A stretch of 64,000 nt of DNA from Chiloscyllium plagiosum (taxonomy: Eukaryota): positions 103,791,963-103,855,962 of the forward strand of contig NC_057718.1 of the NCBI RefSeq assembly GCF_004010195.1, written 5' to 3'. This document shows, in pieces, positions 13,940 through 58,985 of the stretch (its first letter is position 1; each line of letters starts with the position of its first letter). The translations under genes were made by a program, and so were the position numbers. The notes below the pieces were generated by a model that was not told the DNA's origin, did not search any database, and saw nothing but the letters and a program-made list of their open reading frames with translations.

Positions 13940-13975
13940 CACAAGCTTTCGGAGCGACGCTCCTTCATCAGGTGG
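13940..13975 (-). ncRNA. Minimal type-I hammerhead ribozyme motif (PLE family B)
   Basis: Minus strand reads cac-CTGATGA-a-ggagc(gtc)gctcc-GAAA-gc-TT-gtg: stem I cac/gtg, perfect 5-bp stem II. Confidence 0.75.
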
Positions 13976-15437
13976 TTGTGGAGCAGCATCAGAAGACACA
14001 GAATTTAGAGCAAAAGATTACAATGTCAAGCATCTGAAATGATATATTGAACAAATCTAGATTGTTGCTAAATCTTTCATTTTTTAGAACGGGTTGCAGG
14101 GTTCAGTTCATTAATATGTAAATCTCAACTTCTTTTAAGTCACATTCTCGAGATAACTTAAGGCTTTATACAAAAAGGTGACATTTCAGCTCAGACAGTG
14201 CACTAAAGGTGTGAGATCAGAGTCTGTCTGTATCCCAATCTTGAGTCAGATTGGTTCTATTTCCAAAGTGGAATTTACAAAATATTACATGGATAGACTA
14301 CCTGCATATTGTGCATTTTTTGAACAAAATAGAATATATCTGCAAATATAATTCTGCAAATACAAATTCACCTTATAGACTTAGGGGTATGTGTGTGTAC
14401 AAGACAGAGAGGGACAGACAGACAGACAAACAGAGAGTGAGTGTGTGTGTGTGCACGTGCAAGCAAGCTTGGTGAAGTCTGTGTGTGAGTGTGATGGAGT
14501 ACAAGCGTGTGAGAGGGTGTGTGTGTGAGAGAGAGAGGGTCTGCATGAGTGTGAGGGTATGTAAGAGTGTGTGCGTGTGCGAGTGAGAGAGTGTATAGTG
14601 CAGTGGGGTCACCTCTAGTGTGACATAGACAATGTTGGCCGAGTCACATGAGTAGCTGCCACATACATGGTGGGTGGTGCCCCCTTCATTGTCCAGTATT
14701 TTCTGGGAGCTGAAAAACTCACCATGTTCTTTGCAGCATTATTAATGAGGATGAGCATCTCGCCAAGACCTTCCTTAAAGCCTCCACTTCTCACCTTTAA
14801 ACAGCCGCCAAACCTTAAACAGACCATTGTTCCCAGCAAACAGTCCAGCCTTCAGGACAACATCAGCCACAACACCATTCAACCCTGTCATGGCAACCAC
14901 TGCAAGACATGTCAAAGTGTCGAAATAGATGCCACCATTACACGTGGGGACACCATCCACCATATTTGCAGATATATTCTATTTTGCAGGTGCTCATGTG
15001 ACACGGCCAATGTGGACTGTCTCATAAGCTGCAGGCAAGGATGCTCTGAGGCATGGTACATTGTCGTAGCATCTGCTTGATCTTGCCAACAGATGAGTGG
15101 ACACTGCGCAACAATCCCTAAACAGGAATTTTCCCTCTCAGTTGGGGAACACATCAGCAGTAAAGGACCTTCAGCCTCAGACCTTCGGGTGGCCATCCTC
15201 CAAGGCTGACTTCGGGACAGGCAACAACACAAAGTGGCCGAGCAGAGGCTGATAGCCATGTTCGGTACCCATGGGGGTGGCCTCAACTGGGACCTTGGGT
15301 TCATGTCACACTACAGGTGACCCCACGGAACTGTACACACACATACACACACTCACACAAGCCCTCTCTCGTTCACGCACATAGACCCCCCCACACTCAC
15401 ACACACACTCTTACAGGCTTACACTCCATCACGTGCA

Positions 15438-15652
15438 CACTTTACCAAGTTAAAAATTACACAACACCAGGTTATAGTCCAACAGGTTTAATATGAAGCA
15501 CACTAGCTTTCCGAGTGCTGCTCCTTCATCAGGTGATTGGCTAGTATGCTTCCAATTAATCCTGTTGGACTATAACCTGGTGTTGTGTGATTTTTAACTT
15601 TGTACACCCCAGTCCAACACCGGCATCTCCAAATCATGACACTTTACCAAGT
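15438..15652. mobile_element. Nested fold-back mini-PLE (family B) with 13-bp TSD
   Basis: cactttaccaagt at 15438-15450 and 15640-15652; inverted arms; hammerhead motif on minus strand at about 15501-15535. Confidence 0.85.
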
Positions 15653-16093
15653 GTGCGCACTCACTCACTCACTCTCTCGCACACGTGCACACACATAAGT
15701 CTATGGGGTGAATTTGCATTTGCAGAAACGTTCTATTTTGCTCAAAAATGAACGATCTGCAGGCAGTCAATCCATGTAATATTTTATGAATTCTTACTTT
15801 GGACATAGGGCCAGTCTGACTCAAGATTGGGATACAGACAGACTCTAATCTCACACCTTTAATGCATTGTCTGAGCTGAGATATCACCTTTTTGTTTTAA
15901 AGAATGTTAAGTTATCTTGAGAATGTGACTTTAAAGAAGTTCTGGGTTTACACATTAAAGAACCGAAATCTGCAACCTATTCTAAAAGATGAAAGACTTA
16001 ACAACAATCTAGGTTTGTTCAATATATCATTTCAGTTGCTTCATACTAATCTTTCGTGATAAAATTCTGTGTCTTACGATCCTGCTGCAAAAC

Positions 16094-16128
16094 CACCTGA
16101 TGAAGGAGCAGCGCTCTGAAAGCTAGTG
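16094..16128 (+). ncRNA. Minimal type-I hammerhead ribozyme motif (PLE family B)
   Basis: cac-CTGATGA-a-ggagc(agc)gctct-GAAA-gc-TA-gtg. Confidence 0.75.
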
Positions 16129-16270
16129 CTTCCAGATAAGCCTGCTGGACTATCACCTGGTGTAGTGTGATTTTTAACTTTGTCCCTTAATCTTGAAATC
16201 CCCCATCCTAGGGAAAGGACAACTACCATTAATCCTCCCTATACCTGATTATTTTATAAACTTCTACCGT

Positions 16271-16582
16271 GGGCGGCACGGTGGCACAGTGGTTAGCACT
16301 GCTGCATCACAGCGTCTGAGACCCGGGTTCAGTTCCCGCCTCAGGAGACTGACTGTGTGGAGTTTGCACGTTCTCCCCGTGTCTGCGTGGGTTTCCTCCG
16401 GGTGCTCCGGTTTCCTCCCACAGTCCAAAGATGTGCAGGTCAGGTGAATTGGCCATGCTAAATTGCCCGTAGTGTTCGGTAAGGGGTAAATGCAGGGGTA
16501 TGGGTGGGTTGCGCTTCGGCGGGTTCGTGTGGACTTGTTGGGCTAAAGGTCCTGTTTCCACACTGTAATGTAATCTAATCTA
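16271..16582 (+). mobile_element. HE1-type V-SINE inserted in a minus-strand CR1 fragment (about 16190-16740)
   Basis: gggcggcacggtggcacagtggttagcactgctg head with A/B boxes, V-domain, (taatc)n tail. Confidence 0.93.
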
Positions 16583-17979: not shown

Positions 17980-18195
17980 AGGTAAAAACAAGGACTGCAG
18001 ATGCTGGAAACCAGAGTCTAGATTAGATTGGTGCTGGAAAAGCACAGCAGCTCAGGCAGCATCCGAGGAGCAGGAGAATTGACGTTTCAGGCAAAAGGCT
18101 CTATTCCTGATGAAGGGCTTTTGCCCAAAATGTCAATTTTCCTGCACCTCGGATGTTGCCTGACCTGCTGTGCTTTTCCAGCACCACTCTAACCT
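17980..18195. mobile_element. Fold-back mini-PLE (family A) inside a minus-strand CR1 remnant (about 17790-18480)
   Basis: gtgctggaaaagcacagcag... and ...ctgctgtgcttttccagcac inverted arms around a decayed ctgatgaagggcttttgcccaaaatgtc. Confidence 0.8.
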
Positions 18196-19161: not shown

Positions 19162-19498
19162 GGGCGGCACGGTGGCCCAGTGGTTAGCACTGCTGCCTCA
19201 CAGCGCCTGTAGACCCGGGTTCAATTCCCGACTCAGGCGACTGACTGTGTGGAGTTTGCACATTCTCCCCGTGTCTGCGTGGGTTTCCTCCGGGTGCTCT
19301 GGTTTCCTCCCACAGTCCAAAGATGTGCGGGTTAGGTGAATTGGCCATGCTAAATTGCCCGTAGTGTTAGGTTAAAGGGGTAAAGTAGGGGTATGGGTGG
19401 GTTGCGCTTCGGCGGGTCGGTGTGGACTTGTTGGGCCGAAGGGCCTGTTTCCACACTGTAAGTAATGTAATCTAATCTAAAAAAAAAAAAAAAAAAAA
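19162..19498 (+). mobile_element. HE1-type V-SINE with poly(A) tail
   Basis: Full tRNA-like head, V-domain, taatctaatct followed by an A run. Confidence 0.93.
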
Positions 19499-19540
19499 TT
19501 AGACTGCTCCTACTCAGGGTCTGCTGCATCCCCAACCATA

Positions 19541-20486
19541 CCTTATTGAAGAGTAAGAATGTGTTGCTGGAAAAGCGCAGCAGGTCAGGCAGCATCCAAG
19601 GAGCAGGAGAATCGATGTTTCGGGCATGAGCCCTTCTTCAGGAATGAGGCGTGTGCGCCAAGCAGGCTAAGATAAAAGATAGGGAGGAGGGACTTGGGGG
19701 ANNNNNNNNNNNNNNNNNNNNNNNNNNNNNNNNNNNNNNNNNNNNNNNNNNNNNNNNNNNNNNNNNNNNNNNNNNNNNNNNNNNNNNNNNNNNNNNNNNN
19801 NNNNNNNNNNNNNNNNNNNNNNNNNNNNNNNNNNNNNNNNNNNNNNNNNNNNNNNNNNNNNNNNNNNNNNNNNNNNNNNNNNNNNNNNNNNNNNNNNNNN
19901 NNNNNNNNNNNNNNNNNNNNNNNNNNNNNNNNNNNNNNNNNNNNNNNNNNNNNNNNNNNNNNNNNNNNNNNNNNNNNNNNNNNNNNNNNNNNNNNNNNNN
20001 NNNNNNNNNNNNNNNNNNNNNNNNNNNNNNNNNNNNNNNNNNNNNNNNNNNNNNNNNNNNNNNNNNNNNNNNNNNNNNNNNNNNNNNNNNNNNNNNNNNN
20101 NNNNNNNNNNNNNNNNNNNNNNNNNNNNNNNNNNNNNNNNNNNNNNNNNNNNNNNNNNNNNNNNNNNNNNNNNNNNNNNNNNNNNNNNNNNNNNNNNNNN
20201 NNNNNNNNNNNNNNNNNNNNNNNNNNNNNTCCCGCCTATCACCCTCACCTTAACCTCCTTCCACCTATTGCATTCCCAATGCCCCTCCCCCAAGTCCCTC
20301 CTCCCTACCTTTTATCTTAGCCTACTTGGCACACCTTCCTCATTCCTGAAGAAGGGCTTATGCCCGAAATGTCGATTCTCCTGCTCCTTGAATGCTGCCT
20401 GACCTGCTGCACTTTTCCAGCAACACATTGTTCAGCTCTGATCTCCAGCATCTGCAGTCCTCACTTTCTCCTTATTGAAGAGTAAG
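19541..20486. mobile_element. PLE family A with inverted termini spanning an assembly gap; 17-bp TSD
   Basis: ccttattgaagagtaag at 19541-19557 and 20470-20486; hammerhead motifs at about 19612-19646 (-) and 20341-20378 (+). Confidence 0.85.
19702..20229. other. Assembly gap
   Basis: Run of N. Confidence 1.
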
Positions 20487-21338: not shown

Positions 21339-21620
21339 GGCAGCACGGTAGCACAGTGGTTAGCACTGCTACCTCACAGCGCCAGAGACCCGGGTTCAAT
21401 TCCCGCCGCAGGCGACTGACTGTGTGAAGTTTGCACATTCTCCCCGTGTCTGCGTGGGTTTCCTCCCACAGTCCAAAGATGTGCAGGTTAGGGTAGATTG
21501 GCCATGCTGAATTGCCCGTAGTGTTAGGTTAGGGGTATGGGTGGGTTGCGCTTCGGCGGGGTGGTGTGCACTTGTTGGGCCGAAGGGCCTGTTTCCACAC
21601 TGTAAGTAATCTAATCTAAA
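21339..21620 (+). mobile_element. HE1-type V-SINE inserted in a LINE 3' fragment
   Basis: ggcagcacggtagcacagtggttagcactgct head; taatctaatct tail; host LINE resumes at about 21625. Confidence 0.9.
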
Positions 21621-21840: not shown

Positions 21841-23630
21841 CTAAATTGTGGGGACGTCATTCCTACAAGTCAGGCCAGCCTCTGAGAACAGAACAGCATG
21901 AATAACCTTCTAAATCAGCTGTAAATGAAAATTAGTAGTTGGTTAAGTACCTGAAACAGCATTTGTGTGAGTACAGCCGGCTGATTGCTTCACAGACTGG
22001 AGATCTGAGGCTTGACTGACTGAAAACAGACAGGGGAGTGGTCTTTACGGGGTGCTGATAGGGGAGGGGAGGGAAATATATCCTTGGTGGTGGGGTCCGT
22101 TTGGAGGTCACCCATACAGAGTGATAACTTCACAAGTGGAAATTTAATGAAAAGATCCCATGATGTGTTCCATGTTTTGTGACACTTACTGTAACAGAAC
22201 ACACACAAAGTTAACATTGACTCAACAATATTTCATCATGGAACATAAACTGTAAATGGTGAGAAGTCTTCCCATCAGTTTTTATATTGACCAAGAATCA
22301 CAGGTGTTATGGTGCAGAAGGAAACCATTTGGCCCATCGTGCCTTCACTTGTTCTACCACCTGGTGCAAACTTCCCATCTCTTCCTTAAGTCCCTGCACA
22401 CCATTTCTATCCAAGGGCCCTCTTGAATGCCTCAACTGAACATACCTCCATCACATTTCCAGGCAGTGCATTCTAGGCCATACTTACTCACTGTGTGAGA
22501 ACATTTTCCTCACATCAACCTTGCTTCTTTTAAATTGGCAGCTCAATGCCACCTTCCCAAGGGCAGTTAGGAAGGCCCACATCATATGGACGAAGTAAAA
22601 AGCAAGTCCAATGGAAAACCACTAACCTTCATTGAAATGGTGTTCAATAGATTCACCATTGTCTGTTCTGTCCTAGGGCTTTATGAGTGGAACATGTGCC
22701 CTCATATAAACACAAAGTCTTTTCTTTCCTTTTCAAAGGGGACAGCAGCAGCAGATTTAAATCTAATAACGGGCGGGCAACACAACAAGATCACTTTGAC
22801 AAAACTCCCTCAGGACCCAAACTGCACACAGATGTAATGTTGCCTAAACTACCTTCTTGTGTGGGTCTTAGAGTCAGCTTTATTAGCCTGGAAATTGCTA
22901 TTCCTGTCCTAATTGTAGGCTAACTTTGAATGATTAAAATTTTCTGGTAGAGTGTACCCCTGCTGGTTAATACACAATTTTCTGTTTTCAATCTGTGGTC
23001 TAAATTGTGGGGAAGTCATTCCGACAAGTCAGGCCAGCCTCTGAGAACAGACCAGCATGAATAACCTTCTAAATCAGCTGTAAATTGAAATTGTTAGTTG
23101 GTTAAGTACCTGAAATAACATTTGTGTGAGTACAGCCATATTGCTGGAGATGGGTGGCATGGTGGTTAGCACTGCTGCCTCACAGCACCAAGGTCCCAGG
23201 TTCGATTCCAACCTTGGGTGACTGTCTGTGTGGAGTTTGCACATTCTCCCTGTGTCTGCGTGGGTGTGATCCAGCTTCCTCCCACAGTCCAAAGATGTGT
23301 GGGCCAGGTGAATTGGCCTTCTAAATTGCCCATAGTGTTAGGTGCATCATTCAGAGGGAAATAGGTGACTCTTCAGAGGGTCGGTGTGGACTTGTTGGGC
23401 CTTAGGGCCTGTAGGGAATCTTGACTGACTGAACACAGACAGCTTATCACAAGACTGATAACTTCAAACATCCAGTGACTGATTGAAAAGATCAGTGATA
23501 CAGTTTTATGTTTTGTGACATTTAGTGTAACAAACAAACTAAAAGTTAACATTGAGTCAACATTGTTTCAATGTGAAATTCTAAGTATGGGAAGTTTTCC
23601 CATTAATTTTTACACTGACCGAAAATCCCA
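21841..23630 (+). repeat. Local direct duplication (about 21841-22292 and 23000-23630)
   Basis: ctaaattgtgggga..gtcattcc.acaagtcaggccagcctctgagaacag... repeated; the second copy carries an HE1 SINE. Confidence 0.9.
23152..23420 (+). mobile_element. HE1-type V-SINE
   Basis: gggtggcatggtggttagcactgctgcctcacagc head and V-domain. Confidence 0.88.
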
Positions 23631-24275: not shown

Positions 24276-25825
24276 AAAGAACAAAGAACAATATATCACA
24301 GGAACAGGCCCTTCGGCCCTCCAAGCCTGCGCCAACACATTTTGCCCTTCCATACTAAAACTGTCTTCACTAACAGGATCCGTATCCCGCTATTCCCTTC
24401 CAATTCATGTATATGTCCAGGTGCTTCCTGAATGCTGCTGTTGTGTCTGCTTCCACCCCCTAACCTGGCAGTGCGTTCCAGGCATCCACCACCCTCTGTG
24501 TGAAAAACCTGTCTCACACATCTTTTTTAAACTCCTCCCCCCACCTCACCTTGAACCTGTGTCGAGAAAGTGAGGTCTGCAGATGCTGGAGATCAGAACT
24601 GAAATGTGTTGCTGGAGAAGCGCAGCAGGTCAGGCAGCATCCAGGGAACAGGAGAATCGACGTTTCGGGCATAAGCCCTTCTTCAGGAAGAAGGATGTTC
24701 CCTGGATGCTGCCTGACCTGCTGCGCTTCTCCAGCAACACATTTTCAGTTTTGAACCTGTGTCCCCTAGTAATTGATCCCACCACCCTGGGAAAAAGCCT
24801 CATACTTCTCACTCTGTCCATGTCATTCACAACCTTATAAACTTCTATCTGGTTGCCCCTCAACCTCCTGCGTTCCAGTGAAAACGAATCCAGTTTGTCC
24901 AACCTTTCTTCATCGCTAAAATCCCCCACACCAGGCAACATCCTGGTAAATCTTTTCTTTAACCTCTCCAAAGCATCTACAAGGTAGTGTGATAACCAGC
25001 AAGTGTGACCTAACTAAAATTTTATAAAGCTGCAGCGTAACTTGTCTATCCTTATACTCAATGCCCTTTTCAATGAAGACAAGCATGCCATAGGCCTTTT
25101 TACTACCTTATCTACCTCTGCTGTCACCTTCAGCGATCTGTGGACCTGCACTCCCAGATCCCTCTGCGTATCAATACTTTTAAGAGTTCTGCCGTTCACT
25201 ATGTAATTTTCACCTGTACCTGACCTTCCAAAATGCATCATCTCACATTTGTCCAGATTAAATTCCATCTGCCATTTTTCTGCCCATGCCTCTAACTGAT
25301 CTATATCCTGCTGTATCCTCTGACAGTCCTCCTCACTATCTGCAACTCCACCAATTTTTGTATAGACTGCAAACTTACTAATTAGACCAGCTACATTTTC
25401 CTCCATATCATTTATGTAGATCACAAACAGCAGAGGTCCCAGCACTGGTCCCTGTGGAACACCACTAGACATAGCCTTCCATTCTGAAAAAAGCATTCTT
25501 CCACTGCTACCCTCTGTCTCCTATGACTCAGCCAGTCCTGTATCCATCTTGCCAGCTCACCCCGATACCATGTGACTTCACCTTTTGTACCAATCTGCCA
25601 TAAAGGACCTTGTCAAATGCTTTACTGAAGTCCATGTAGACAATATCAACCGATTTCCCTTCAACAATCACCTTCATCACCTCCTCAAAAAACTCTATCA
25701 AGTTAGTGAGGCACAACCTCCCCCGTACAAAACCATGCTGTCTATCGCCAATCAGTCCACTTGCTTCTAAACAAGTGTAGATCTTGTCCCTGAGAATCTT
25801 TTCCAATAAGTTCCCTACCACTGAC
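24276..25825 (-). mobile_element. CR1 LINE RT fragment nested in a plus-strand CR1 (about 24180-24275 plus 25826-26560)
   Basis: SGVPQGPVLGPLLFVIYINDM..KFA, VYMDFSKAFDKV, QHGFVRGRLCLTNLIEFFEE; the host reading resumes after an aaacaa duplication. Confidence 0.92.
24551..24763. mobile_element. Fold-back mini-PLE (family A) with 13-bp TSD and intact hammerhead core (minus strand, about 24655-24690)
   Basis: ttgaacctgtgtc at 24551-24563 and 24751-24763; minus strand reads ttc-CTGAAGA-a-gggc(ttat)gccc-GAAA-cg-TC-ga. Confidence 0.88.
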
Positions 25826-26572
25826 AAACAAGGATGGGACTTATACAACAAATAGTCGGGCCCTGGATGGTGTGGTAGAACAGAGGTTCAGGTACATAAT
25901 TTTTTGCAATGTTAGTCATATGTAGGCAGGGTGGTTAAGAAGGCATTTAGCACACTTGCTCAGACATTTGAGTATAGTAGTTGGGAAGTCATGTTGAGGG
26001 TGTACAAGACATTGGTGAGGCCTGGAGTACTTTGTCCAGTTCTGGTTGCCCTGTTAGAGGAAGGACATTATAAAACTGGAGAGGGTTCAGAAAAAAGTAT
26101 TGCCAGAATGGAAGGTTTGAGTTATAAGGAGAGGCTGGATATGCTGGGACATTTTTCACTGGAGCCTACGAGGTTGAGGAGTGACCTGATAGAGGTTTAT
26201 AAAACCATGAGGGGCATAGATAAGGTGAATAGCAAGTGTCTTTTCCCTAGGATGGGGGAGTTCATAACTAGAGGGCATACGTTTAAGGTGAGAGGAGAAA
26301 ATTTTGAAAAGGACACAAAGGACAACTGTTTTACAAAGAGAGTGGTTTGTGTGTGGAATGAACTGCCAGAGGAAGTGGTGGATGTTGGTACAGTTGTAAT
26401 GTTTAAAAGACAATTAAATAAGTACATCAATGGGAAAGGTTTGGAGGGATATCGACCGGGAGCAGGCAGGTAGCACTAGTTTGGTTTGGGAACATGGGCA
26501 GTGTGGACTAGTTGGACCAAAGGGTCTGTTTCAGTGCTGTATGACTCTATGACTCCATATAGAGTGACTCTA

Positions 26573-26640
26573 CATATTACCCTAATAGTGGATTAGCATT
26601 ATAGTGAATTACCCCAATAACACATTACTCCAATAGCATT
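26573..26640 (+). repeat. Second block of the same 16-bp minisatellite (about 4 units)
   Basis: catattaccctaatag tggattagcattatag tgaattaccccaataa cacattactccaatag. Confidence 0.7.
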
Positions 26641-27399: not shown

Positions 27400-27878
27400 T
27401 AAAAACTAAAAGAACCGCAGATGCTGTCAATCGAAACAAAAACAGAAGTTGCTGGAAAAGCTCAGCAGGTCTGGCAGCATCTGTGCAGAGAAATCAGAGT
27501 TAATGTTTCAGGTCTGGTGACCCTTCTATACAACTGTCCCCTGTCCTTTTATGTGGCTGTTGGCTTTTTTACTGGACCCTGCAAATTAAACTGGCAACTT
27601 TGACATTGTCCCCTGAGCCACTAAAATCAGCATCCAAGGATTGTCAATACCATCTTCAGCTGACCTGGGCCAGCAGGAGAGATATTATTAATCATTACAA
27701 GCAGAAGACCTTTAGCAACCCAGCAACAGTGATTACCCTAACGTTCCGAAGAAGGGTCACTCAACCTGAAACGTTTACTCTGATTTCTCCCCACAGATGC
27801 TGCCAGACGTGCTGAGTTTTCCCAGCAATTTCTGTTGTTGTTTCTGATTTGCAACATCCAGATTTCCTTGTTTTTTTG
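27400..27878. mobile_element. Inverted pair of PLE family A' termini (about 27400-27527 minus, 27742-27878 plus)
   Basis: gctggaaaagctcagcaggtctggcagcatctgtg vs ccacagatgctgccagacgtgctgagttttcccagc; decayed hammerhead ccgaagaagggtcactcaacctgaaacgtt. Confidence 0.8.
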
Positions 27879-28949: not shown

Positions 28950-29505
28950 TATTATTGGGGAGACAGGCCGGCTACTTGCGGAGCGTTTCAGAGAACACCT
29001 CTGGGACACCCGGACCAACCAACCCAACCACCCTGTGGCTCAACATTTCAATTCCCCCTCCCACTCCACCAAGGATATGCAGGTCCTTGGACTCCTCCTT
29101 CGCCAGACCACAACAAAATGACGGTTGGAGGAAGAGCGCCTCATCTTCCGCCTAGGAACCCTCCAACCACAAGGGATGAACTCGGATTTCACCAGTTTCC
29201 TCATTTCCCCTCCCCCCACCTTGTCTCAGTCAATCCATCGATCTCAGCACCGCTTTCCTAACCTGCAATCTTCTTCCTGAACTCTACGCCCCCACCCCAG
29301 TCTGACCTATCACCCTCACCTTGACCTCTTCCCACCTACCACATGTCCGACTCCCTCCCCCAAGTCCCTCCTCCCTACCTTTTATCTTAGCCTGCTGGAC
29401 AAACTTTCCTCATTCCTGAAGAAGGGCTTATGCCCGAAACGTCGATTCTCCTGTTCCTTGGATGCTGCCTGACCTGCTGCGCTTTTCCAGCAACATATTT
29501 TCAGT
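28950..29505 (+). mobile_element. PLE family A 3' portion (GIY-YIG C-terminus plus pseudo-LTR), inserted in a minus-strand HE1 SINE (28870-28950 plus 29505-29776)
   Basis: IGETGRLLAERFREHLWDTRTNQPNHPVAQHFNSPSH...RLEEERLIFRLGTLQPQGMN. Confidence 0.92.
29411..29447 (+). ncRNA. Minimal type-I hammerhead ribozyme motif (PLE family A)
   Basis: attc-CTGAAGA-a-gggc(ttat)gccc-GAAA-cg-TC-gatt; GUC cleavage triplet; stem I imperfect. Confidence 0.72.
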
Positions 29506-30030: not shown

Positions 30031-30039
30031 TATGGTGAA

Positions 30040-32404: not shown

Positions 32405-33570
32405 CTTTAAAATCACACAACACCAGGTTGTAGCCCAACAGGTTTATTTGAAAACACTAGCTTTCATGGTGTTGTGTGATTTTTAACTTTGTCCACCCCA
32501 GGCCAACACCAGCTCCTCCACATCAGTTCAGACTCACACCTGCCATTAATGAGATAAAACTACAACAAAGGGACAAGTGCTAAACAAGAATTGCTCTACA
32601 AACCAAAACAGGAGTCTCCACTTAGGATGATAATCTTTAAAAAAAAAAATTTGGAGCTGCTGGTGTAGGACTGGGGTGTACAAAGTTAAAAATCACACAC
32701 CAGGTTACAGTCCAACAGATTTATTTGGAAGCACTAGCTTTCAGAGCGCTGCTCCTTCATCAGGTGATAGTGGAGTATAAGACAGTAAGACACAGAATTT
32801 ATAGCAAAAGTTTACAGTGTGATTTCACTGAAATTATACATTGAAAAAGACCTGGATTGTTTGTTAAGTCTCTCATCTTTTAGAATGGGCATGTTGGTTT
32901 CAGTTCTTTCAAATGTAAATCCCAGAACTTTTTTAAAGTTACATTCTCAAGTCAACTTTAATAACAGGTGCCATGTCAGCCCAGATTATGCATTGAGGGC
33001 GTGAGGTGCCCTGTGTGTCTGTCTGTGCCCCAATATTCAGACTGATTCTATTCCTAAAAAAGGGATTTACAGAATCTTACATGGATTCATGCAATTTTTG
33101 AGCAAATTAAAATGTAATTTGCAAGTACAAATTCACCCCACAAACTTATGTGCATGTGTGTGAGTGCGAGTGCAAACGGATATAAGTCTGAGATGTTGCG
33201 TATATGCGTGAGTGTGGGAGTGTATGTGTGAGTGTATGTGTGAGCACATTGTGTGTGTGTGTATAGTGCAGTGGGGTCACCTATAGTGTGACATGAACCA
33301 AAGGTCTCCTTTGAGGCCATCCCCATGGGTACCAAATTTGGCTTTGGGACAGGCAACAACACAAAGTGGCCGAGCAGAGGCTGATAGCCAAGTTCGGTAC
33401 CCATGGGGATGACCTCAACTGGGACCTTGGGTTCATGTCACACTAGAGGTGACCCTACTGCACTACACACACCCACAGATACACACACCCATAGACACAC
33501 ACACCCACAGACACACACACACACACACACACGGACACACACACACACTCACGCAGACCCTCTCTTATAC
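32405..33570 (-). mobile_element. PLE family B: mini fold-back unit (about 32405-32526) and larger pseudo-LTR (about 32650-33340) with a short inverted piece (about 33345-33570)
   Basis: Colinear with 13850-14630; hammerhead motif on minus strand at about 32732-32767; (CA)n tract. Confidence 0.85.
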
Positions 33571-34419: not shown

Positions 34420-34755
34420 AAGATTTGTAGTTCAGGTTCTGGATATAAGTTTGCTCACTGAGCTGGAAGGTTCAGTTTCAGATGTTTCATCACCATGCTA
34501 GGTAACATCATCAGTGAGCCTCTAATGAAATGCTGGTGTTATGTCCCACTTTCTACTTATGTATTTAGGTTTCTTTAGGTGATGGTGAACCAGAAATGAC
34601 ATCACCAAACACCCAAAAAAACCTAAACACATAAATAGAAAGTGGGACATAACATCAGCGCTTCAACGGAGGTTCACTGATGATGTTACCTAATATGGTG
34701 ACGAAACATCTGAAACCGAATCTCCCAGCTCAGAGAGCAAACTCAGATCCAGCAA
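34420..34755. mobile_element. Fold-back PLE terminal unit (family C-like) with two inverted hammerhead motifs
   Basis: Arms about 34439-34585 and 34600-34752 are reverse complements; agatttgtag end resembles ctacaaatct at 43929. Confidence 0.82.
34673..34714 (+). ncRNA. Minimal type-I hammerhead ribozyme motif
   Basis: ttca-CTGATGA-t-gttacc(taatat)ggtgac-GAAA-ca-TC-tgaa: 4-bp stem I, 6-bp stem II with one G-U pair. Confidence 0.75.
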
Positions 34756-39973: not shown

Positions 39974-42780
39974 CTAAACCTGTCGGTCAATTCCTAAGCA
40001 TTTGTATCCTTCTGCTCTCCACCTACTCCTGCATCTGTCCAGACGCACCTTAAATGAATCTACCGTGCCTGCCTCTACTACCTCTGCTGACAATGCGTTC
40101 CAAACACCCACCACCCTCTGTGTGAAGTACTTGCCACATGTATCTCCCTTAAACTTTCCACCTCTCACCTTGAAAGCATGACCTCTCGTTATTGAATCCT
40201 TCACCCTGGGAAAAAGCTTGTCTCTATCCACCCTGTCCATACCCTTCATGATTTTGTAAACCTCAATCAGGTCCCCCCTCAATCTCCTTTCTTCTAGTGA
40301 AAATAAACCTAACCTACTCAACCTCTCTTCATAGCTAGCATCTTCCATACCAGGCAACATCCTCGTAAACCTTCTCTGCACCCTCTCCAAAGCGTCCACA
40401 TCCTTTTGGTAATGTGGTGACCAGAACTGTACACAGTATTCTAAATGCGGCTGAACCAATGTCTTGTACAATTTTAACATGACTTGCCAGCTCTTATACT
40501 CAATACCCCGTCCAATAAAGGCAAGCATACTATATGCCTTCTTGACCACTCTATCCACCTGTGCAGCCACCTTCAGGGTACAATGGACCTGCACTCCCAG
40601 ATCTCTCTGCCCATCAACTTGTCCCAAGGCTCTTCCATTCATTGTATAATTCGCTCTAGAATTAGTCTTGCCTAAATGCATCATCTCACATTTGTCTGGA
40701 TTGAACTCCACCTGCCAATTTTCCACCCAACTCTCCAGTCTATCTATATCCTCCTGTATTCTCTGACTGTCCCTTATGCTTTCTGCTACTCCACCAATCT
40801 TCATGTCATCTGCAAACTTGCTGATCGTACTAACAGTGCCCTCTTCCAGATCATTTATGTATATTACAAACAACAGTGGCCCCAATACTGACCCCTGTGG
40901 AACACCACTGGTCACCTTTCTCCATTTCGAGAAACTCCCTTCAACTACTATTCTCTGTCTCCTGTTGCACAACCAGTTCTTTACCCACCTAGTCAAGCAC
41001 ACCATGTGACTTCACTTTCTCCATTAGTCTACAATGGGGAAACTTATCAAACGCCTTACTGAAGTCCATGTATATGTCATCAACAGCCCTTCCTTCATCT
41101 AACAACTTGATCACTTCCTCAAAGAACTCTATTAAGTTGGTAAGGCACGATTTTCCCCACACAAAACCATGTTGCCTATCACTGATAAGCTCATTTTTTT
41201 CTAAATATAAATAGATCCTATCTCTCAGTACCCTCTCCAGCAACTTCCCCACCACCGATGTCAGGCTCACTGGTCTGTATTTACCCAGAATATCCCTACT
41301 ACCCTTCTTGTACAGGGGGACAATGTAAGCCACCCTCAAGTCTTCCAGCTCCTTACCTGTGTTTGAGGATGCCACAAAGATATCTGTCAGGGCCCCAGCT
41401 ATTTCCTCTCTCACCTCCCTCAGCAACCTGGGATAGATCCCATCCAGTCCCTGGGGATTTGTCCACCTTAATAACCTCTATCATACCCAACACATCTTCC
41501 CTACTTATACCAACGTGATCCAGACTAATCAAACCTCTACCTCTAATCTCAAGATTCATCATGTTCCTCTCCTCAGTGAACACTGATGCAAAGTAATCAT
41601 TCAGAAACTCACCCAATCTCTCAGATTCGGCACACAGCCTTCCTTCATTATTTTTTAATGGACTAATCCTTTCTCTAGTTACCCGCTGGCTTCTTATATA
41701 AGAATAAAAGGCTTTGGGATTTTCCTTAATTTTGCTTGCTAAAGCTATTTCATGACCCCTTTTAGCCCGCTTGATTCCTTGTTTAAGACTTGTCCTACTC
41801 GTCCAATATTCCTCCAGGGCCCATTCTGTTCTTAGCTGCCTAGACCTTATGTACACTTCCTTTTTCCTCTTGGTTAATTGTACAATTTCTCCTGTCATCC
41901 ACGGTTCACGAATCTTGCCCTTTCCTATCCTTTGCCTTCAACGGGACATGCCTATCCTGCACTATCTTTAACCTATCTTTGAAAACCTCCCACATACCAA
42001 ATGTGGACTTCCCTTCAAATAGCTGTGTCCAATCCACATTTCCCAGCTCTTGCCTAATTTTGTTGTAATTGGCCTTGGCCCACTTTAGTACTCTTCCCTG
42101 AGGACCACTCTCTTCTTTATCTACGGGTATTCTAAAACTTACAGAATTGTGGTCACTGTTCTCAAAGAAATCCCCCACCGCTTGTCTTGGCCTGTTCCCC
42201 AGTACCAGGTCCAATATGGCCCCTTCCCTCGTCGGACGATTGACATACTGCTCTAGAAAACTCTCTTGGATGCTTTGTACAAATTCTACCCCATCCAGAT
42301 CTCTGACGCTAAGTGTATCCCAGTCTATATTGGGAAAATAAAATCTCCCATCACCACTACCCTATTTCCTCTACATCTATTCATAATCTGTTTACCTATT
42401 TGTTCTTCTACCTCATGCTCACAGTTGGGAGGTCTGTAATACAGCCCCAACAATGTAACTGCACCCTTCTTATTTCTCAGCTCCACCATAATGCCTCACT
42501 ACCCAAGCCCGCAATAGTGTCCTCCTTTAACACAGCCGTGATATCGTCCCTGACCAGCAATGCAACTCCACCCCCCCTCTTTTACTTCCCTCCCTGTCTT
42601 GTCTGAAGCGTCTATGTCCTGGAACATTTAGTTATCAATCATCATTCCCTTCCTTCAACCAAGTCTCTGTGATGGCAATAATGCCATACTCCTAGGCACC
42701 ATTCCAAGCCCTAAGTTTATCTGCCTTACACACTATACTCCTTGCATTAAAGTAGATGCATTTCAGGCCAGCAGTTCGTC
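39974..42780 (-). pseudogene. CR1 ORF2 (APE endonuclease plus reverse transcriptase), frameshifted; longest open piece 343 aa at 39974-41005
   Basis: Consecutive ORF-track pieces 42692-42952, 41906-42214, 41353-41898, 40989-41426 and 39974-41005 form one colinear ORF2 in changing frames. Confidence 0.92.
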
Positions 42781-43083: not shown

Positions 43084-43966
43084 CCTCATCTCACTGTTGT
43101 GGTTCTGTTCGCCGAGCTGGAAGTTTTTGTTGCAAACATTTCGTCCCTTGGCTAGGCGACATCATCAGTGCTTGGGAGCCTCCTGCGAAGCGCTTCTTAG
43201 ATGTTTCCTCCGGTGTTTATAGTGGTCTGTCCCTGCCGCTTCCGGTTGTCAGTTTCAGCTGTCCGCTGTAGTGGTTGGTATATTGGGTCCAGGTCGATGT
43301 GTTTGCTCCCCGTGTCTGCGTGACTTTCCTCTGGGTGCTCTGGTTTCCTCCTACAATCCAAAGATGTGCAGGTTAGGGCAATTAGCCGTACTAAATTGCC
43401 CATTGTGTTCAGGGATGTGTAAGTTAGGTGCATTAGTCTGAGGTAAATGTAGAATAATAGGGTCTGGGTGGGTTACTCTTTGGAGGGTCAGATTGGACTT
43501 GTTGGGCCAAATGGCCTGTTTGCACACTGTTAAGGATTTTATGATTCTATCTCCTTTGAGCTTTCCCCCTCTCACCTTGAATGCATGCCCCCTAGTTTTA
43601 GGCATTTAATTCGACTGGGACAACACTACTATCATAGGGCAAGCCAGACAGAGAACAGCCAGGGAATTCCTAGAGGCATGGCATTCATCCACAAACTCCA
43701 TCAACAAACACATCGACCTGGACCCAATATACCAACCACTACAGCGGACAGCTGAAACTGACAACCGGAAGCGGCAGGGACAGACCACTATAAACACCGG
43801 AGGAAACATCAAAGAAGCGCTTCGCAGGAGGCTCCCAAGCACTGATGATGTCGCCTAGCCAGGGGACGAAACGTTTGCAACACAAACTTCCAGCTTGGCG
43901 AACAGAACCACAACAGTGAGCACCCGAGCTACAAATCTTCGCACAAACTTTGATCCTCATCTCACT
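43084..43966. mobile_element. PLE family C with inverted termini, inserted in CR1 ORF1; 12-bp TSD; contains HE1 and CR1 fragments
   Basis: cctcatctcact at 43084-43095 and 43955-43966; plus strand FDWDNTTIIGQARQRTAREFLEAWHSSTNSINKHIDLDPIYQPL (PLE endonuclease C-terminus). Confidence 0.88.
43839..43878 (+). ncRNA. Minimal type-I hammerhead ribozyme motif (PLE family C); inverted copy at about 43131-43171
   Basis: gca-CTGATGA-t-gtcgcct(agcc)aggggac-GAAA-cg-TT-tgc. Confidence 0.72.
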
Positions 43967-44072: not shown

Positions 44073-44286
44073 GGGCGGCACGGTGGCACAGTGGTTAGCA
44101 CTGCTGCCTCACAGTCCAAAGATGTGCAGGTCAGGTGAATTGGCCATGCTAAATTGCCCGTAGTGTTAGGTAACTGGTAAATGTAGGGGTATGGGTGGGT
44201 TGCGCTTCGGCGTGGCGGTGTGGACTTGTTGGGCCGAAGGGCCTGTTTCCACACTGTAAGTAATCTAAATCTAAATCTAAATCTAA
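44073..44286 (+). mobile_element. HE1-type V-SINE with internal deletion, inserted in CR1 ORF1
   Basis: gggcggcacggtggcacagtggttagcactgctgcctcacagtccaaagatgtgc...(taaatc)n. Confidence 0.9.
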
Positions 44287-47194: not shown

Positions 47195-48330
47195 GGGGAG
47201 GGGTCAGTTTGAAATGTGGGTCCGTGTGGCGGGGGTCAGTGTGAGGGAGTTCAGNNNNNNNNNNNNNNNNNNNNNNNNNNNNNNNNNNNNNNNNNNNNNN
47301 NNNNNNNNNNNNNNNNNNNNNNNNNNNNNNNNNNNNNNNNNNNNNNNNNNNNNNNNNNNNNNNNNNNNNNNNNNNNNNNNNNNNNNNNNNNNNNNNNNNN
47401 NNNNNNNNNNNNNNNNNNNNNNNNNNNNNNNNNNNNNNNNNNNNNNNNNNNNNNNNNNNNNNNNNNNNNNNNNNNNNNNNNNNNNNNNNNNNNNNNNNNN
47501 NNNNNNNNNNNNNNNNNNNNNNNNNNNNNNNNNNNNNNNNNNNNNNNNNNNNNNNNNNNNNNNNNNNNNNNNNNNNNNNNNNNNNNNNNNNNNNNNNNNN
47601 NNNNNNNNNNNNNNNNNNNNNNNNNNNNNNNNNNNNNNNNNNNNNNNNNNNNNNNNNNNNNNNNNNNNNNNNNNNNNNNNNNNNNNNNNNNNNNNNNNNN
47701 NNNNNNNNNNNNNNNNNNNNNNNNNNNNNNNNNNNNNNNNNNNNNNNNNNNNNNNNNNNNNNNNNNNNNNNNNNNNNNNNNNNNNNNNNNNNNNNNNNNN
47801 NNNNNNNNNNNNNNNNNNNNNNNNNNNNNNNNNNNNNNNNNNNNNNNNNNNNNNNNNNNNNNNNNNNNNNNNNNNNNNNNNNNNNNNNNNNNNNNNNNNN
47901 NNNNNNNNNNNNNNNNNNNNNNNNNNNNNNNNNNNNNNNNNNNNNNNNNNNNNNNNNNNNNNNNNNNNNNNNNNNNNNNNNNNNNNNNNNNNNNNNNNNN
48001 NNNNNNNNNNNNNNNNNNNNNNNNNNNNNNNNNNNNNNNNNNNNNNNNNNNNNNNNNNNNNNNNNNNNNNNNNNNNNNNNNNNNNNNNNNNNNNNNNNNN
48101 NNNNNNNNNNNNNNNNNNNNNNNNNNNNNNNNNNNTGTGGGAGGGGTCGGGGTCAGTGTGATGGAGTCATTGTGAGGGGGTATGTCAGTGTGAGGGGGTC
48201 AGTGTGAAGGGGGGTCAGTGTGAGGGGGTTTGTCAGTGTGAGTGTGTCAGTGTGAGGGCAGGGTCAGTATCGGGGGCTTAATGTGAGGAATTAGCGATCA
48301 GCGTGGCGTGGTTGGGGGTCAGTTTGAGGG
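47195..48330 (+). repeat. G-rich gggtcagtgtgaggg-type minisatellite flanking an assembly gap (N at 47255-48135)
   Basis: gggggtcagtgtgaggg-like units on both sides of the N run. Confidence 0.75.
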
Positions 48331-48639: not shown

Positions 48640-48848
48640 AAAGTGTGGTGCTGGAAAAGCACAGCAGGTCAAGCAGCATCCAAGGAGCACGAGAATCGAT
48701 GTTTCAGGCATAAGCCCTTCATCAGGAATGTGGTGGGGGTGGGGGGGAAGGGGGCTGAGAGATAAATAGGAGGGGGAGTGGAGCTGGGAGGAAGGTCACT
48801 TGGAGGGCGAAAGGTGGTTGCGGGTGGGGGCTGATGGTGATAGGTATT
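48640..48848 (-). mobile_element. PLE family A terminal fragment inserted in a LINE RT remnant
   Basis: gtgctggaaaagcacagcaggtc...atcgatgtttcaggcataagcccttcatcaggaatg; ttagaacatgg repeated on both sides. Confidence 0.8.
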
Positions 48849-51475: not shown

Positions 51476-51637
51476 GGGATTGGTTAGCTCAGTTTAGCTG
51501 GATGGCTGGTTAGTTGTAGATTCAACATCTGCACAAGCTGACGTTAACATGAAGGACTCTGCTTCTCAACCTCTCCTCTCACTAAGGGTGTAGTGATCAT
51601 CAGGTTAAAGCACCACCAATCAACTCTCTTTCTATCA
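51476..51637 (+). mobile_element. SINE family 3, 5' part (3' part at about 54890-54955; another copy at about 58985-59180)
   Basis: ttggttagctcag head, catgaaggactct..ttctcaac..tcaggttaaa.caccacca core, gcagcccta..ggact tail; split by the CR1 block. Confidence 0.7.
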
Positions 51638-53705
51638 GGACAAAGACAATGTTGTCAAGGAGAATGCGGAGATACAGGCTATTAAACTAGACAGGATTGA
51701 GGTTCATAAGGAGGAGGTGTTAGCAATTCTGGGAAGTGTTAAAATGGATAAGTCCCTTGGGCCGGAGGGGATTTATTCTCTGGGAAGCCACGGAGGAGAT
51801 TGCAGAGCCTTTGGTTTTGATCTTTATGTCATCATTGCCTACAGGAATTGTGCCAGAAGACTGAAGGATAGTAAATGTTGTTCCCTTGTTCAAGAAGGGG
51901 AGTAGAGGCAACCCTGGTAATTATAGACCAGTGAGCCTCACTCGGTTGTGGGTAAAGTGTTGGAAAGGATTATAGGAGACAGGATTTATAATCATCTAGA
52001 AAGGAATAATTTGATGGTCAACACGGTTTTGTGAAGGGTAGGACATGCCTCACAAAGCTTATTGAGTTCTTTGAGATGGTGACCAAACAGGTGGATGAGG
52101 GTAAAGCAGTTGATGTGGTGTATATGGATTTCAGCAAGGCGTTTGATAAGGTTCCCCACGGTAGGCTATTGCACAAAATACAGAGGCATGGGATCGAGGG
52201 TGACTTAGCGGTTTGGTTCAGAAATTAGCTATTTGTAAGAAGACAAAGGGTGGTGGTTGATGGGAAATGTTCATCCGTTTCCGGGCAGCACGGTGGCTCA
52301 GTGGTTAGCACTGCTGCCTCACAGCACCAGGGTCCCAGGTTTGATTCCTGCCTCGGGCGACTGTCTGTGTGGAGTTTGCACATTCTCCCCATGTCAGTGT
52401 GGTTTCCTCCGGGTGCTCTGGTTTCCTCCCACAGTCACAAAGATGTGCAGGTTAAGTGCATTGGCCATGCTAAATTGCCCATAGTTTTATGTGCATTTGT
52501 CAGAGAGAAATGGGTCTGGGTGGGTTACTTTTCGGAGGGTCAGTGTGGACTTGTTGGACTGAAGGGCCTGTTTCCACACTGCAGGGAATCTAATCCTGGA
52601 GTTCAGTTACTAGTGGTGTACCACAAGGATCTGTTTTGGGGCCACTGCTGTTTGTCATTTCTATAAATGACCTGGATGAGGGTGTAGAAGGATGGGTTAT
52701 TAAATCTGTGGATGGCACTAAGGTCGGTGGAGTTGTGGACAGTGTGGAAGGATGTTGTAGGTCACAGAGAGACATAGATAAGCTGCAGAGCTGGGCTGAG
52801 AGGAGGCAAATGGAGTTTGATGCGAAAAAGTGTGAGGTGATTCACTTTGGAAGGAGTAACAGTGCTGTGCTGTTCCAGCAATAAAGTTTCAACTTTGATC
52901 TCCAGCATCTGCAGACCTCACTTTCTCCTCCCAAATGGAGTTTGATGCGAAAAAGTGTGAGGTGATTCACTTTGGAAGGAGTAACAGGAATACAGAGTAC
53001 TGGATTAATGGAAAGATTCTTATTTGTGTGGATGACCAGAGTGATGTTGGTGCCCATGTACATAGATCCCTGACAGTTGCCAACCAGGTTGATAGGGTTG
53101 TTAAGAAGGCGTACGGTGTGTTAACTTGTTTGAGTTTTGAGTTTTGGAGCCATGAGGTCATGCTGCAGCTGTACAAAACTCTGGTGTGGCCGCACTTGGA
53201 GTATTGCATACAGTTCTGGTCACCATATTATCAGAAGGATGTGGAAACATTGGAAAGGGTGCAGAGGAGATTTACCAGGATGTTGCCCAGTATGGAGTAA
53301 AGATCTTATGAGGAAAGGCTCAGGGACTTGAGCCTGTTTTCGTTAGAGAGAAGCAGGTTGAGAGGTGACTTAACAGAGGCAGACAAGATGATCAGAGAAT
53401 TAGATAGGGTGGAAGTGAGAGCCTTTTTCCTTGGATGGTGATGGCTAGCAGTAGGGGACATAGCTTTAAATTGAGGGGTGATAGATATAGGACAGGTGTC
53501 AGAGGTAGTTTCTTTACTCAGTAGTAGGGGCATGGAACACCCTGCCAGCAATAACAGTAGACTCACCAACTTTAAGGGCATTTAAATGGTCAGTGGAAAA
53601 ACATATGGATGATAATGGAATAGTGTAGGTTAGATGGGCTTCAGATTGGTTTCACAGGTTGGCACAACATCAAGGGCTAAAGGGCCTGTACTGCACTGTA
53701 ATACA
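51638..53705 (+). mobile_element. CR1 LINE ORF2 fragment with nested HE1 SINE (52282-52595) and a 69-bp PLE tail insert
   Basis: DKSLGPEGI, KGRTCLTKLIEFFE, VYMDFSKAFDKVPH, GPLLFVISINDL, LEYCIQFWSP. Confidence 0.93.
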
Positions 53706-54875
53706 GTCATAAAGTTATAGAGATGTACGGCATGGAAGCAGACCCTTCGGTCCAACCCATCCATGCCGACCAGATATCCCAACCCAATCTAGTCCCACCT
53801 GCCAGCACCTGGCCCATATCCCTCCAAACCCTTCCTATTCATATACCNNNNNNNNNNNNNNNNNNNNNNNNNNNNNNNNNNNNNNNNNNNNNNNNNNNNN
53901 NNNNNNNNNNNNNNNNNNNNNNNNNNNNNNNNNNNNNNNNNNNNNNNNNNNNNNNNNNNNNNNNNNNNNNNNNNNNNNNNNNNNNNNNNNNNNNNNNNNN
54001 NNNNNNNNNNNNNNNNNNNNNNNNNNNNNNNNNNNNNNNNNNNNNNNNNNNNNNNNNNNNNNNNNNNNNNNNNNNNNNNNNNNNNNNNNNNNNNNNNNNN
54101 NNNNNNNNNNNNNNNNNNNNNNNNNNNNNNNNNNNNNNNNNNNNNNNNNNNNNNNNNNNNNNNNNNNNNNNNNNNNNNNNNNNNNNNNNNNNNNNNNNNN
54201 NNNNNNNNNNNNNNNNNNNNNNNNNNNNNNNNNNNNNNNNNNNNNNNNNNNNNNNNNNNNNNNNNNNNNNNNNNNNNNNNNNNNNNNNNNNNNNNNNNNN
54301 NNNNNNNNNNNNNNNNNNNNNNNNNNNNNNNNNNNNNNNNNNNNNNNNNNNNNNNNNNNNNNNNNNNNNNNNNNNNNNNNNNNNNNNNNNNNNNNNNNNN
54401 NNNNNNNNNNNNNNNNNNNNNNNNNNNNNNNNNNNNNNNNNNNNNNNNNNNNNNNNNNNNNNNNNNNNNNNNNNNNNNNNNNNNNNNNNNNNNNNNNNNN
54501 NNNNNNNNNNNNNNNNCCACCACCCTCTGTCTTCTACCTTTGAGCCAGTTCTGTATCCAAATGGCTAGTTCTCCCTGCATTCCATGAGATCTAACCTTGC
54601 TAATCAGTCTCCCATGGGGAACCTTGTCGAACGCCTTACTGAAGTCCATATAGATCACATCTACTGCTCTGCCCTCATCAATCTTCTTTGTTACTTCTTC
54701 AAAACACTCAATCAAGTTTGTGAGACATGATTTCCCACGCACAAAGCCATATTGACTATCCCCTAATCAGTCCTTGCCTTTCCAATATCCTGTCCCTCAG
54801 GATTCCCTCCAACAACTTGCCCACTATCGAGGTCAGGCTCACCGGTCTATAGTTCTCTGGCTTGTCCTTACCGTT
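53706..54875 (-). mobile_element. HER1/CR1 LINE fragment spanning an assembly gap (N at 53848-54516)
   Basis: RGKSCLTNLIECFEEVTKKIDEGRAVDVIYMDFSKAFDKVPHG; YMNRKGLEGYGPGAGRWD. Confidence 0.92.
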
Positions 54876-57579: not shown

Positions 57580-58215
57580 GCTTATTGGTCAGATTATTGA
57601 GTACAGGAGTTGGGAGGTCATGTTGTGGCTGTACATGACATTGGTTAGGCCACTGTTGGAATATTGCGTGCAATTCTGGTCTCCTTCCTATCGGAAAGAT
57701 GTTGTGAAACTTGAAAGGGTTCAGAAAAGATTTACAAGGATGTTGCCAGGGTTGGAGGATCTGAGCTACAGGGAGAGGGTGAACAGGCTGGGGCTGTTTT
57801 CCCTGGAGTGTCGGAGGTTGAGGGGTGACCGTATAGAGGTTTATAAAATCATGAGTGGCATGGATAGGATAAATAGATAAATTTATTTCCCTGGGGTCGG
57901 GGAGTCCAGAACTAGAGGGCATAGTGTTATAGTGAGAGGGGAAAGATATAAAAGAGACCTAAGAGGCAACTTTTTCACTCAGAGGGTGGTACATGTATGG
58001 AATGAGTTGCCAGAGAAAGTGGTGGAGGCTGGTACAATTGCAACATTTCAGAGGCATTTGGATGGGTATATGAATAGGAAGGGTTTGGAGGGACATAGGC
58101 CAGGTGCTGACAAGTGGGACTAGATTGGGTTGGGATATCTGGTCGGCATGGACGGGTTGGACCGAAGGGTCTGTTTGCGTGCTGTGCATCTCTATGACTC
58201 TATGAGTCTATGACT
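57580..58215 (+). mobile_element. HER1/CR1 LINE 3' fragment inserted in SINE family 2
   Basis: IGQIIEYRSWEVMLWLYMTLVRPLLEYCVQFWSPSYRKD...; (ctatgact)n tail. Confidence 0.92.
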
Positions 58216-58344
58216 CTTAGCTGCCCTCTGGGCAATTACAGTGGGAAATAAATGCTGGTCCAGCCAGTGACACCCTCATCCTGTGAATGAATTCTTTTAA
58301 AGTACAGAGGGTGTAGAGAGTGATCAATTACCTCAAATGCCTGA

Positions 58345-58985
58345 TATGGAGTTGCCATTATTGAACTGGGGTGGACAAAGTCAGAAGTCACATGACATCA
58401 GGTTATAGCTCGAAAGGTTTATTTGAGATCACAAGCTTTCGGAGCACTGCTCCTTTGTCAGGTGAAGTGACCATATAACCTGGTGTCATGTGACTTCCGA
58501 CTCAATTGCGTGGACAGCTGGCTTGCAGGTCCTGGGCCTCCTCCACTGCTAAATCCAAGCCACCTGACAAGTGGAGGACAAACGCCTCACCGTCTACCTT
58601 GGGACCCTCCAACCACACGGCATCAATGTCAATTTCACCAATTTTCTCATCTCCCCTCCCCCCCACCTCACCCCAATCCAACCCTCCAACTCGGCACCGC
58701 CCTCTTGACCTGTCTTACCTGTCCATCTTCCTTCCCACCTATCTGCTCCACCCTCTCCTCTAACCTATCACCATCATTCCCCACCTGCATCTACCTTTCG
58801 CATTCCCAGCTACATCACTCCCAGCCCAACCCCCACTCCCACCCTCCTATTTGTCTCCTTGCCCCCTCCACCACCACCCCCCGCACTCCACATTCCTGAT
58901 GAAGGGCTTGTGCCTGAACCGTTGATTCTCCTGCTACCCCGATGTTGTCTGACCTGCTGTGGTTTTGCAGCACCACACCTTTTGT
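58345..58985. mobile_element. PLE family B fold-back fragment (about 58345-58500) followed by a family A-like 3' fragment (about 58510-58985)
   Basis: agaagtcacatgacatcaggttata vs tataacctggtgtcatgtgacttc; decayed hammerheads at about 58430-58465 (-) and 58891-58930 (+). Confidence 0.78.

Follow-up and report, generated by a model that had tools for sequence, protein, structure and literature searches.

The window analysed here, a stretch of 64,000 nucleotides (nt) from the shark Chiloscyllium plagiosum (contig NC_057718.1, positions 103,791,963 to 103,855,962), is populated by short insertions of Penelope-like elements (PLEs), which carry a minimal type I hammerhead ribozyme motif and are assigned to families A, B and C, the last with the members C1 and C2 (Table 1). 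The core pattern CTGANGA-N-x-GAAA-NN-TH occurs 14 times in the window, and 12 of these matches also possess a stem II of at least 4 base pairs (bp) and a stem I of at least 2 bp, compared to a mean of 0.005 and a maximum of 1 in 200 dinucleotide shuffles. By a scan tolerating substitutions, 17 copies of ribozyme length were counted (seven A, six B, four C), arms consisting of the tail only being additional; this agrees with an earlier note on this DNA, which had reported well over a dozen. All 11 copies named there were found in the sequence, and the four cuts it predicted (after 29443, 16125, 34710 and 43875) are located at H17 of the respective cores. The palindrome ACGT or AGCT described there is retained in 7 of 13 family copies with an intact core, while the other six have ACAT or ATGT, as produced by CpG decay; four of these six are among the 11 named copies (20341+, 19612-, 43131-, 34673+). 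Similarly, the weakness of stem I stated for family A applies to subfamilies A1, A3 and A4 (2 bp, U.U, A-U), but not to A2, which has a clean stem of 4 bp (ATTC/GAAT).

Coding sequence is linked to the ends of A, B, C1 and C2, in accordance with the position proposed for the hammerheads at the pseudo-long terminal repeat (pLTR) or 3' end of PLEs, and within the window endonuclease remnants adjoin the hammerheads of all four. Genome copies of family A have an upstream open reading frame (ORF) with YIDD, a CNRRRCKTC-type linker and a YCI-C--C-LLYIG endonuclease; when 30 loci were chosen by the N-terminal region of the A reverse transcriptase (RT), the A end was located in sense downstream at 10, and many of the remaining 20 consist of N at this place. 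The ends of family B are collinear with an ORF encoding a CHGNHCRTC linker and a WYIG endonuclease, which is followed by a long 3' untranslated region (UTR). C1 and C2 encode a YVDD-type RT and a YKIPC--C--HYIG endonuclease, and the cysteine linker is absent. A cysteine linker CX2-5CxxC between RT and endonuclease (EN) is the criterion for Neptune and is common to Nematis (PMC8557442, cited, like the other papers below, from excerpts of its text). Thus, A and B, with such a linker before the GIY-YIG domain, are probably Neptune-type, and C1 and C2 would be sister families of Penelope/Poseidon type. Protein identity amounts to 55-59% between C1 and C2, to 28% over 130 amino acids between A and B, and to 22-47% over short stretches between A or B and C. 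The families had been called unrelated, which is overstated, as C1 and C2 are sisters at this identity and all fall within two known clades; what had been treated as a single family C thus comprises two, each with its own hammerhead. In C1, the upstream ORF reads across CUGAUGA up to a stop codon within loop II; another frame, beginning with an ATG where stem II starts, is open along the tail. In an internally deleted direct tandem of family A (sample stretch L129), the tail continues to an ATG at +135, counted from the predicted cut. No complete full-length ORF between direct pLTRs was found among the A loci in two upstream walks, many of these loci containing N runs, and sample stretch L144, where a tandem C1 copy was sought, is not tandem. 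A second internally deleted unit, in sample stretch L067, joins the A ORF-start region directly to -39 of the hammerhead end. Of the words sampled from the C1 end (window 43608-43920), at least half occur in sequencing runs of three organisms; C1 is therefore not confined to this species.

To estimate abundance and conservation, 140 evenly spaced 10-kb stretches were sampled (1.36 Mb without N), from contigs C1-C37 only, these being contig labels and not families. They contain 95 strict hammerhead matches, or 70 per Mb (bootstrap 56-85), which extrapolates to approximately 250,000 strict motifs (200,000-300,000) in 3.56 Gb. The first 80 even stretches yielded 57 strict matches compared to 0.1 in shuffles, and at least one of the 95 resembles a chance match. 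Two features that the descriptor does not demand are common among them: the 15.2/16.2 palindrome is present in 66 of 95, with CpG-decay forms in 23 more, and G10.1-C11.1 in 76 of 95, with GT in another 15; the extra nucleotide 9.1 is present and N7 is free. In one C1 subfamily (L185, L171, L129) N7 is G (CUGAGGA), altering the overlapping codon, and this is the only core position that varies. By sequence, the core, the palindrome, nucleotide 9.1 and G10.1-C11.1 agree with the published consensus for minimal hammerheads (PMC4209133). That the core is kept while the flanks change is borne out between the four A subfamilies, which were chosen by tail similarity: three of 28 motif columns vary (N7 and two bases of loop II), compared to 9 of 18 upstream and 14 of 55 downstream. 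The stems of A, B and C differ wholesale with pairing retained, and among 12 distinct rows of C the outermost pair of stem I is UA in five, GC in four and CG in two. The computed active dimer of A, A2 and B, at -13 to -17 kcal/mol, is less stable than two monomer folds and than the free co-fold, a result that fits the low or protein-dependent activity described in PMC4209133 and PMC11167929; the energy computed for C1, with 3 bp of stem II only, does not lend itself to this comparison. Five further sample stretches (L074:1542+, L131, L139, L197, L200:574+) have single hammerheads with a longer stem II, a TT/AA-type stem I and an A-like tail. They suggest more Neptune-like families than the earlier note had listed, to which the window tail fragments 27448-27481 (-) and 27796-27828 (+) may belong.

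All families end at either of two fixed 3' ends beyond the cut, about 35 nt apart (A ~+61/+98, B ~+57/+94, C ~+42/+78). Most A and B copies are stubs of 120-250 nt, often arranged as head-to-head pairs; less than 95 nt separate the cut sites in 65 of 109 such pairs of A and in 27 of 33 of B, the shortest distance among eight C pairs being 88. Tail-to-tail pairs closer than 200 nt were not found in the genome sample. Both arms of abutting pairs belong to the same subfamily, exactly one arm is long-tailed in 43 of 46 A pairs and in all 21 B pairs, and target duplications of 10-19 bp flank 36 of the 46 (control 1) and 10 of the 21 (control 0). Nearly all copies have sequence on either side of the cut site. 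The two motifs of an inverted pair are located on opposite strands, so that an active dimer is impossible in cis, and transcripts of inverted units are predicted to fold as a long hairpin hiding the motif. A tandem retrozyme of the non-LTR type was ruled out as a description of these copies, as only 10 of the 95 strict matches have a same-strand family partner within 3 kb and inverted pairs dominate. A simple picture of dimer cleavage is thus opposed by the mostly inverted local copies, by an active dimer that is not the lowest-energy fold, and by copy ends that avoid the cut.

The position of these ends was determined against curated references built from 5-9 copies per family, keeping 254 of 325 A, 72 of 85 B and 17 of 28 C copies; copies were excluded if their tail identity was below 0.8 or if they lay close to N or to the edge of a stretch. 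The core of A and B begins at -27/-28, and the rate of 5' ends at -40 to -26 is 0.073 (A) and 0.078 (B) per nt at risk, an approximately tenfold excess over the 0.001-0.010 of all other bins except -25 to -21. Accordingly, among copies reaching -26, 82 of 125 A and 35 of 49 B copies stop by -40, as does 1 of 15 in C. Young A copies have an excess ratio of 16, and those without a partner one of 15. At -1 to +3, 5' ends of genomic copies are not in excess (A 10/960 compared to 63/5922, B 0/305), and few copies begin at 0 to +4. The ends of A have their mode at -31/-30, on TCATTCC. We take TCATTCC to fit the initiator consensus YYANWYY; no untemplated G was apparent by eye ahead of the -31 ends in the A copies listed. 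One single-cell polyA run was also searched, a library unsuitable for cleavage, giving 1,796 aligned reads from both strands, 95% of which continue into unlike sequence. The same boundary is marked by inverted joints and by loose ends at 29412 (-31), where 136 reads have mixed sequence upstream, and the 1,796 reads show no site where many molecules begin or end; they reflect passively transcribed genomic stubs. As most copies end just ahead of the motif and not at the cut, they have likely been copied from uncut RNA.

Taken together, we consider it probable, at roughly 80%, that the motifs represent minimal type I hammerheads located at the pLTR end of PLEs of the Neptune type (A, B) and the Poseidon type (C1, C2), that they are predicted to cut only as protein-assisted dimers on tandem RNA, and that the window copies are truncated insertions likely derived from uncut RNA. 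In such a scheme, the element protein would use both strands of a DNA break for internal priming of reverse transcription at the two tail ends. The template would be uncut RNA, as PMC11167929 and the copy ends suggest, and in A and B this RNA may start near the front edge of the ribozyme. Priming on the 5' copy of the tail would then run off after about 90-130 nt, and two such short complementary DNAs (cDNAs) could subsequently be joined head to head. Selection on the motif would have acted in rare active masters and not in the window copies. Precedents exist for parts of this scheme: Penelope of D. virilis has an internal promoter within the pLTR (PMC2377424), and the anole Poseidon element primes internally, its hammerhead being protein-dependent and dispensable for insertion in vitro (PMC11167929); inverted junctions have, instead, been attributed to self-priming (PMC3846280). 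With somewhat less than even confidence, it might further be hypothesized that the Neptune-type hammerhead is the first ~30 nt of the element RNA, that the enzyme mostly primes on the 5' tail copy and thereby pastes ribozyme stubs from both sides of the break, leaving about a quarter million motifs in one vertebrate genome, and that the ribozyme serves as a decapping device or an on/off switch of the mRNA rather than as a template maker.

Several observations weigh against this interpretation. A third of the copies reaching -26 continue past -40, the tandem copy in L129 begins at about -90, and family B has no clean initiator match; the latter two argue against a single fixed RNA start. Family C has no 5' pile-up (the 1 of 15 given above), and the pile-up in older copies can be inflated by subfamilies missing among the 5-9 references. 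With regard to the elements, the RT core of family B was not seen in linked loci, only thumb, linker and endonuclease, and Pfam matched three of seven proteins, with RVT_1 in C1 (E 7.6e-9) and, below the cut-off, RVT_1 in C2 (E 1.4e-6) and GIY-YIG in A (E 2e-4). An Rfam search of the window returned no hammerhead model among 15 matches at E<=10, so that the motif call depends on our own descriptor and on conservation; the MIR158 and mir-190 matches at 34533-34657 were rejected, being the C2 inverted repeat. Within subfamilies the core is barely better kept than the tail (0.94-1.00 compared to 0.90-0.98), as would be expected of dead copies. Covariation in C comprises only two doubly changed pairs, which 367 of 500 shuffles matched, with a score of 0.32 compared to 0.23 shuffled and uncorrected for kinship. 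Stem II of C1 contains a G.G mismatch, and conservation of the C motif may partly reside at the protein level, as the motif overlaps coding sequence.

Among the alternatives, the main one, which we regard as rather unlikely, explains the 5' pile-up by a barrier: a protein just upstream of or on the ribozyme, acting as a template boundary or as a stop for 5'-3' trimming, would end the cDNA. A fold would be expected to stall RT on its 3' side, and there is no excess of ends at -20 to +10; the A mode on TCATTCC, with its presumed initiator match, also argues against a barrier. On the other hand, the ends are spread over ~20 nt and are equally placed relative to the motif in A and B despite differing sequence, and this, together with the L129 start at -90 and the protein-assisted hammerhead of the anole (PMC11167929), would be well accommodated. 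It appears improbable that the hammerheads cut in vivo and that the RNA normally serving as template is cleaved or circularised, as proposed in PMC4209133, in which case the short units would be retrozyme-like. Core and pairing kept between families, the few copies starting at 0 to +4 and the weak cleavage of published dimers in vitro (PMC4209133) would fit this proposal; however, it conflicts with the sequence retained on both sides of nearly every cut, the lack of excess at -1 to +3, the scarcity of same-strand partners, which does not indicate tandem arrays, and the absence of an end pile in the 1,796 reads of the unsuitable library. A separate family of short inverted units resembling miniature inverted-repeat transposable elements (MITEs), spread from few palindromic masters, would account for inverted repeats of 120-320 nt with target duplications and for three junction types recurring two to three times, but it is very improbable and for the most part refuted by the variety of the junctions (46 A pairs have 42 different ones, 21 B pairs have 21), which rules out a single MITE master, and by arms of one subfamily with asymmetric tails as in PLE insertions (PMC8557442). 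Just as hard to credit is a fortuitous resemblance spread by the copying of repeats, or a motif maintained in some non-catalytic role, as promoter, protein-binding site or codons: copies within a family are not independent, Rfam gave no match, C overlaps coding sequence and stem I of A1 has only 2 bp, but core, nucleotide 9.1, G10.1-C11.1 and palindrome are co-located in three lineages of 22-47% protein identity with different stems and match the published consensus.

Table 1. Penelope-like copies and hammerhead motifs in the window. Coordinates are window positions; signed numbers are counted from the predicted cut.
Position	Strand	Feature	Details
29416..29443	+	Family A minimal hammerhead, intact	CUGAAGA, 4-bp stem II, GAAA-CG-UC; predicted cut after 29443
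28954..29505	+	5'-truncated Neptune-type element A	GIY-YIG remnant 28954-29223, 3' region, hammerhead, short tail; tblastn 89% to A endonuclease; blastn
19558..20469	both	Family A head-to-head unit	hammerheads 19641-19614 (-, ACAT) and 20346-20373 (+, ATGT); long tail on + arm; 17-bp flanking duplication
19702-20229		N run inside the preceding unit	hides its junction
24564..24750	both	Family A fold-back stub	intact hammerhead 24686-24659 (-) from -36; opposite arm from +9; 13-bp flanking duplication; transcript predicted to fold as one long hairpin
18029..18186	both	Older family A fold-back stub	decayed hammerhead 18107-18134 (+, AAAA in place of GAAA); opposite arm from -16
48640..48733	-	Family A stub	start -35; hammerhead 48725-48698 (ACAT)
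58514..58975	+	Old family A copy	endonuclease remnant 58514-58681; decayed hammerhead 58896-58923
13863..14425	-	Family B 3' region	intact hammerhead 13971-13943 (AGCU, CUU)
14679..16183	+	Neptune-type element B	linker/GIY-YIG remnant 14679-15314; 3' UTR from 15660; hammerhead 16097-16125
15451..15638	both	Family B fold-back stub nested in 3' UTR of element B 14679..16183	hammerhead 15532-15504 (-) from -34; opposite arm from -3, long-tailed; 14-bp flanking duplication
32663..33443	both	Family B copy (-)	hammerhead 32763-32735; endonuclease C-terminal remnants 33283-33443 in both orientations
32406..32522	both	Family B fold-back stub without complete core	arms from -7 and +33; 12-bp flanking duplication
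637..720	+	Family B stub	cut at first core base; outside the range of the earlier note
58361..58464	-	Family B stub	from -31; decayed core 58461-58433
43098..43954	both	Poseidon-type C1 head-to-head unit	hammerheads 43168-43135 (-, ATGT) and 43842-43875 (+, intact, GUU); endonuclease C-terminus 43610-43855, stop codon in loop II; 11-14-bp flanking duplication; other repeat inserted at ~43307-43546
34439..34752	both	Poseidon-type C2 head-to-head unit	hammerheads 34514-34481 (-) and 34677-34710 (+), each ACAT; both cores entered by endonuclease C-terminal codons

Further repeats share the window with these copies. The most abundant long repeat consists of broken copies of a long interspersed element (LINE) with apurinic/apyrimidinic (AP) endonuclease and RT, at 39974-42361 (-), 25014-25520 (-), 25916-26473 (+) and 53789-54766 (-), which by their motifs are presumably CR1/L2-like. 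A repeat of ~300 nt resembling a short interspersed element (SINE) is present at 16272-16582, 19164-19475, 21339-21619, 23145-23439, 43252-43546, 44093-44274 and 52284-52598, one copy being situated within the C1 inverted unit. A tandem array with a period of 33-34 nt occupies 59803-60402, and N runs are also located at 47255-48135 and 53848-54516.

Minimal hammerheads have been described in the pLTRs of metazoan PLEs, including Xena, Poseidon and Neptune of fishes (Cervera and De la Pena 2014, PMC4209133). Thus, such motifs in Neptune and Poseidon pLTRs of fishes have been published, as have opposite-strand pairs and insertions of the inverted-plus-tail kind, and what is new here is the families, not the concept. 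Shark terms do not occur in two supplementary files of that paper, as far as excerpted, nor are the present families listed there; the excerpts of PMC5680766 and of a preprint surveying retrozymes (bioRxiv 10.64898/2026.07.22.740005), which took in one chondrichthyan genome, likewise hold nothing specific to them. Our literature search, which did not cover Repbase or Dfam, found no report of shark PLE hammerheads or of a cluster of 5' ends at the edge of the ribozyme. What PLE hammerheads do is still described as open (PMC8557442, PMC11167929), and the present genome may serve as a test bed, as it offers very many dated insertions with sharp ends that point to copying from uncut RNA, the front edge of the ribozyme being the position at which to decide between an RNA start and a barrier.

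Compared to known systems, C1 and C2 resemble the Poseidon element PAc of Anolis carolinensis (Frangieh et al. 2024, PMC11167929) in having RT and GIY-YIG without a cysteine linker, in the C1 ATG at the start of stem II with a frame open through the tail, in two 3' ends ~35 nt apart and in the signs that uncut RNA is copied. Unlike in PAc, the ATG of family A at +135 places the motif in the 5' UTR, and no tandem C copy was found that would prove that the C ATG opens the ORF; the excerpted text of that study does not mention a 5'-end pile-up such as that of A and B. As in other insertions of endonuclease-containing (EN+) PLEs (PMC8557442, PMC3846280), we observed 5' truncation, a head-to-head inverted copy, a tail of 30-40 bp on one arm and a target duplication. 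In contrast to these, the units are often only 120-250 nt long, the junction is located at the 5' edge of the ribozyme, and the duplications measure 10-19 bp (8-10 bp in the rotifer examples). With the non-LTR retrozymes of the preprint the copies share a type I hammerhead in pLTR-derived non-coding sequence; however, retrozymes form head-to-tail tandem arrays with one hammerhead per unit, whereas the copies described here are dispersed or inverted. Finally, they match the minimal hammerheads of PMC4209133 in the type I core without loop 3, the palindromic 15.2-16.2, the extra nucleotide between 9 and 10.1, G10.1-C11.1 and a short helix I, and also in the occurrence of several families per genome, mostly solo or as opposite-strand pairs, while stem II of A and B has 4-5 bp, unlike the 7-8 bp of the Schistosoma families. 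The ~250,000 motifs extrapolated here stand against 4,000 and 9,000, numbers called remarkable in that paper, although obtained with different descriptors; if the extrapolation holds, the present count is more than 20 times the highest figure given in its excerpted text.

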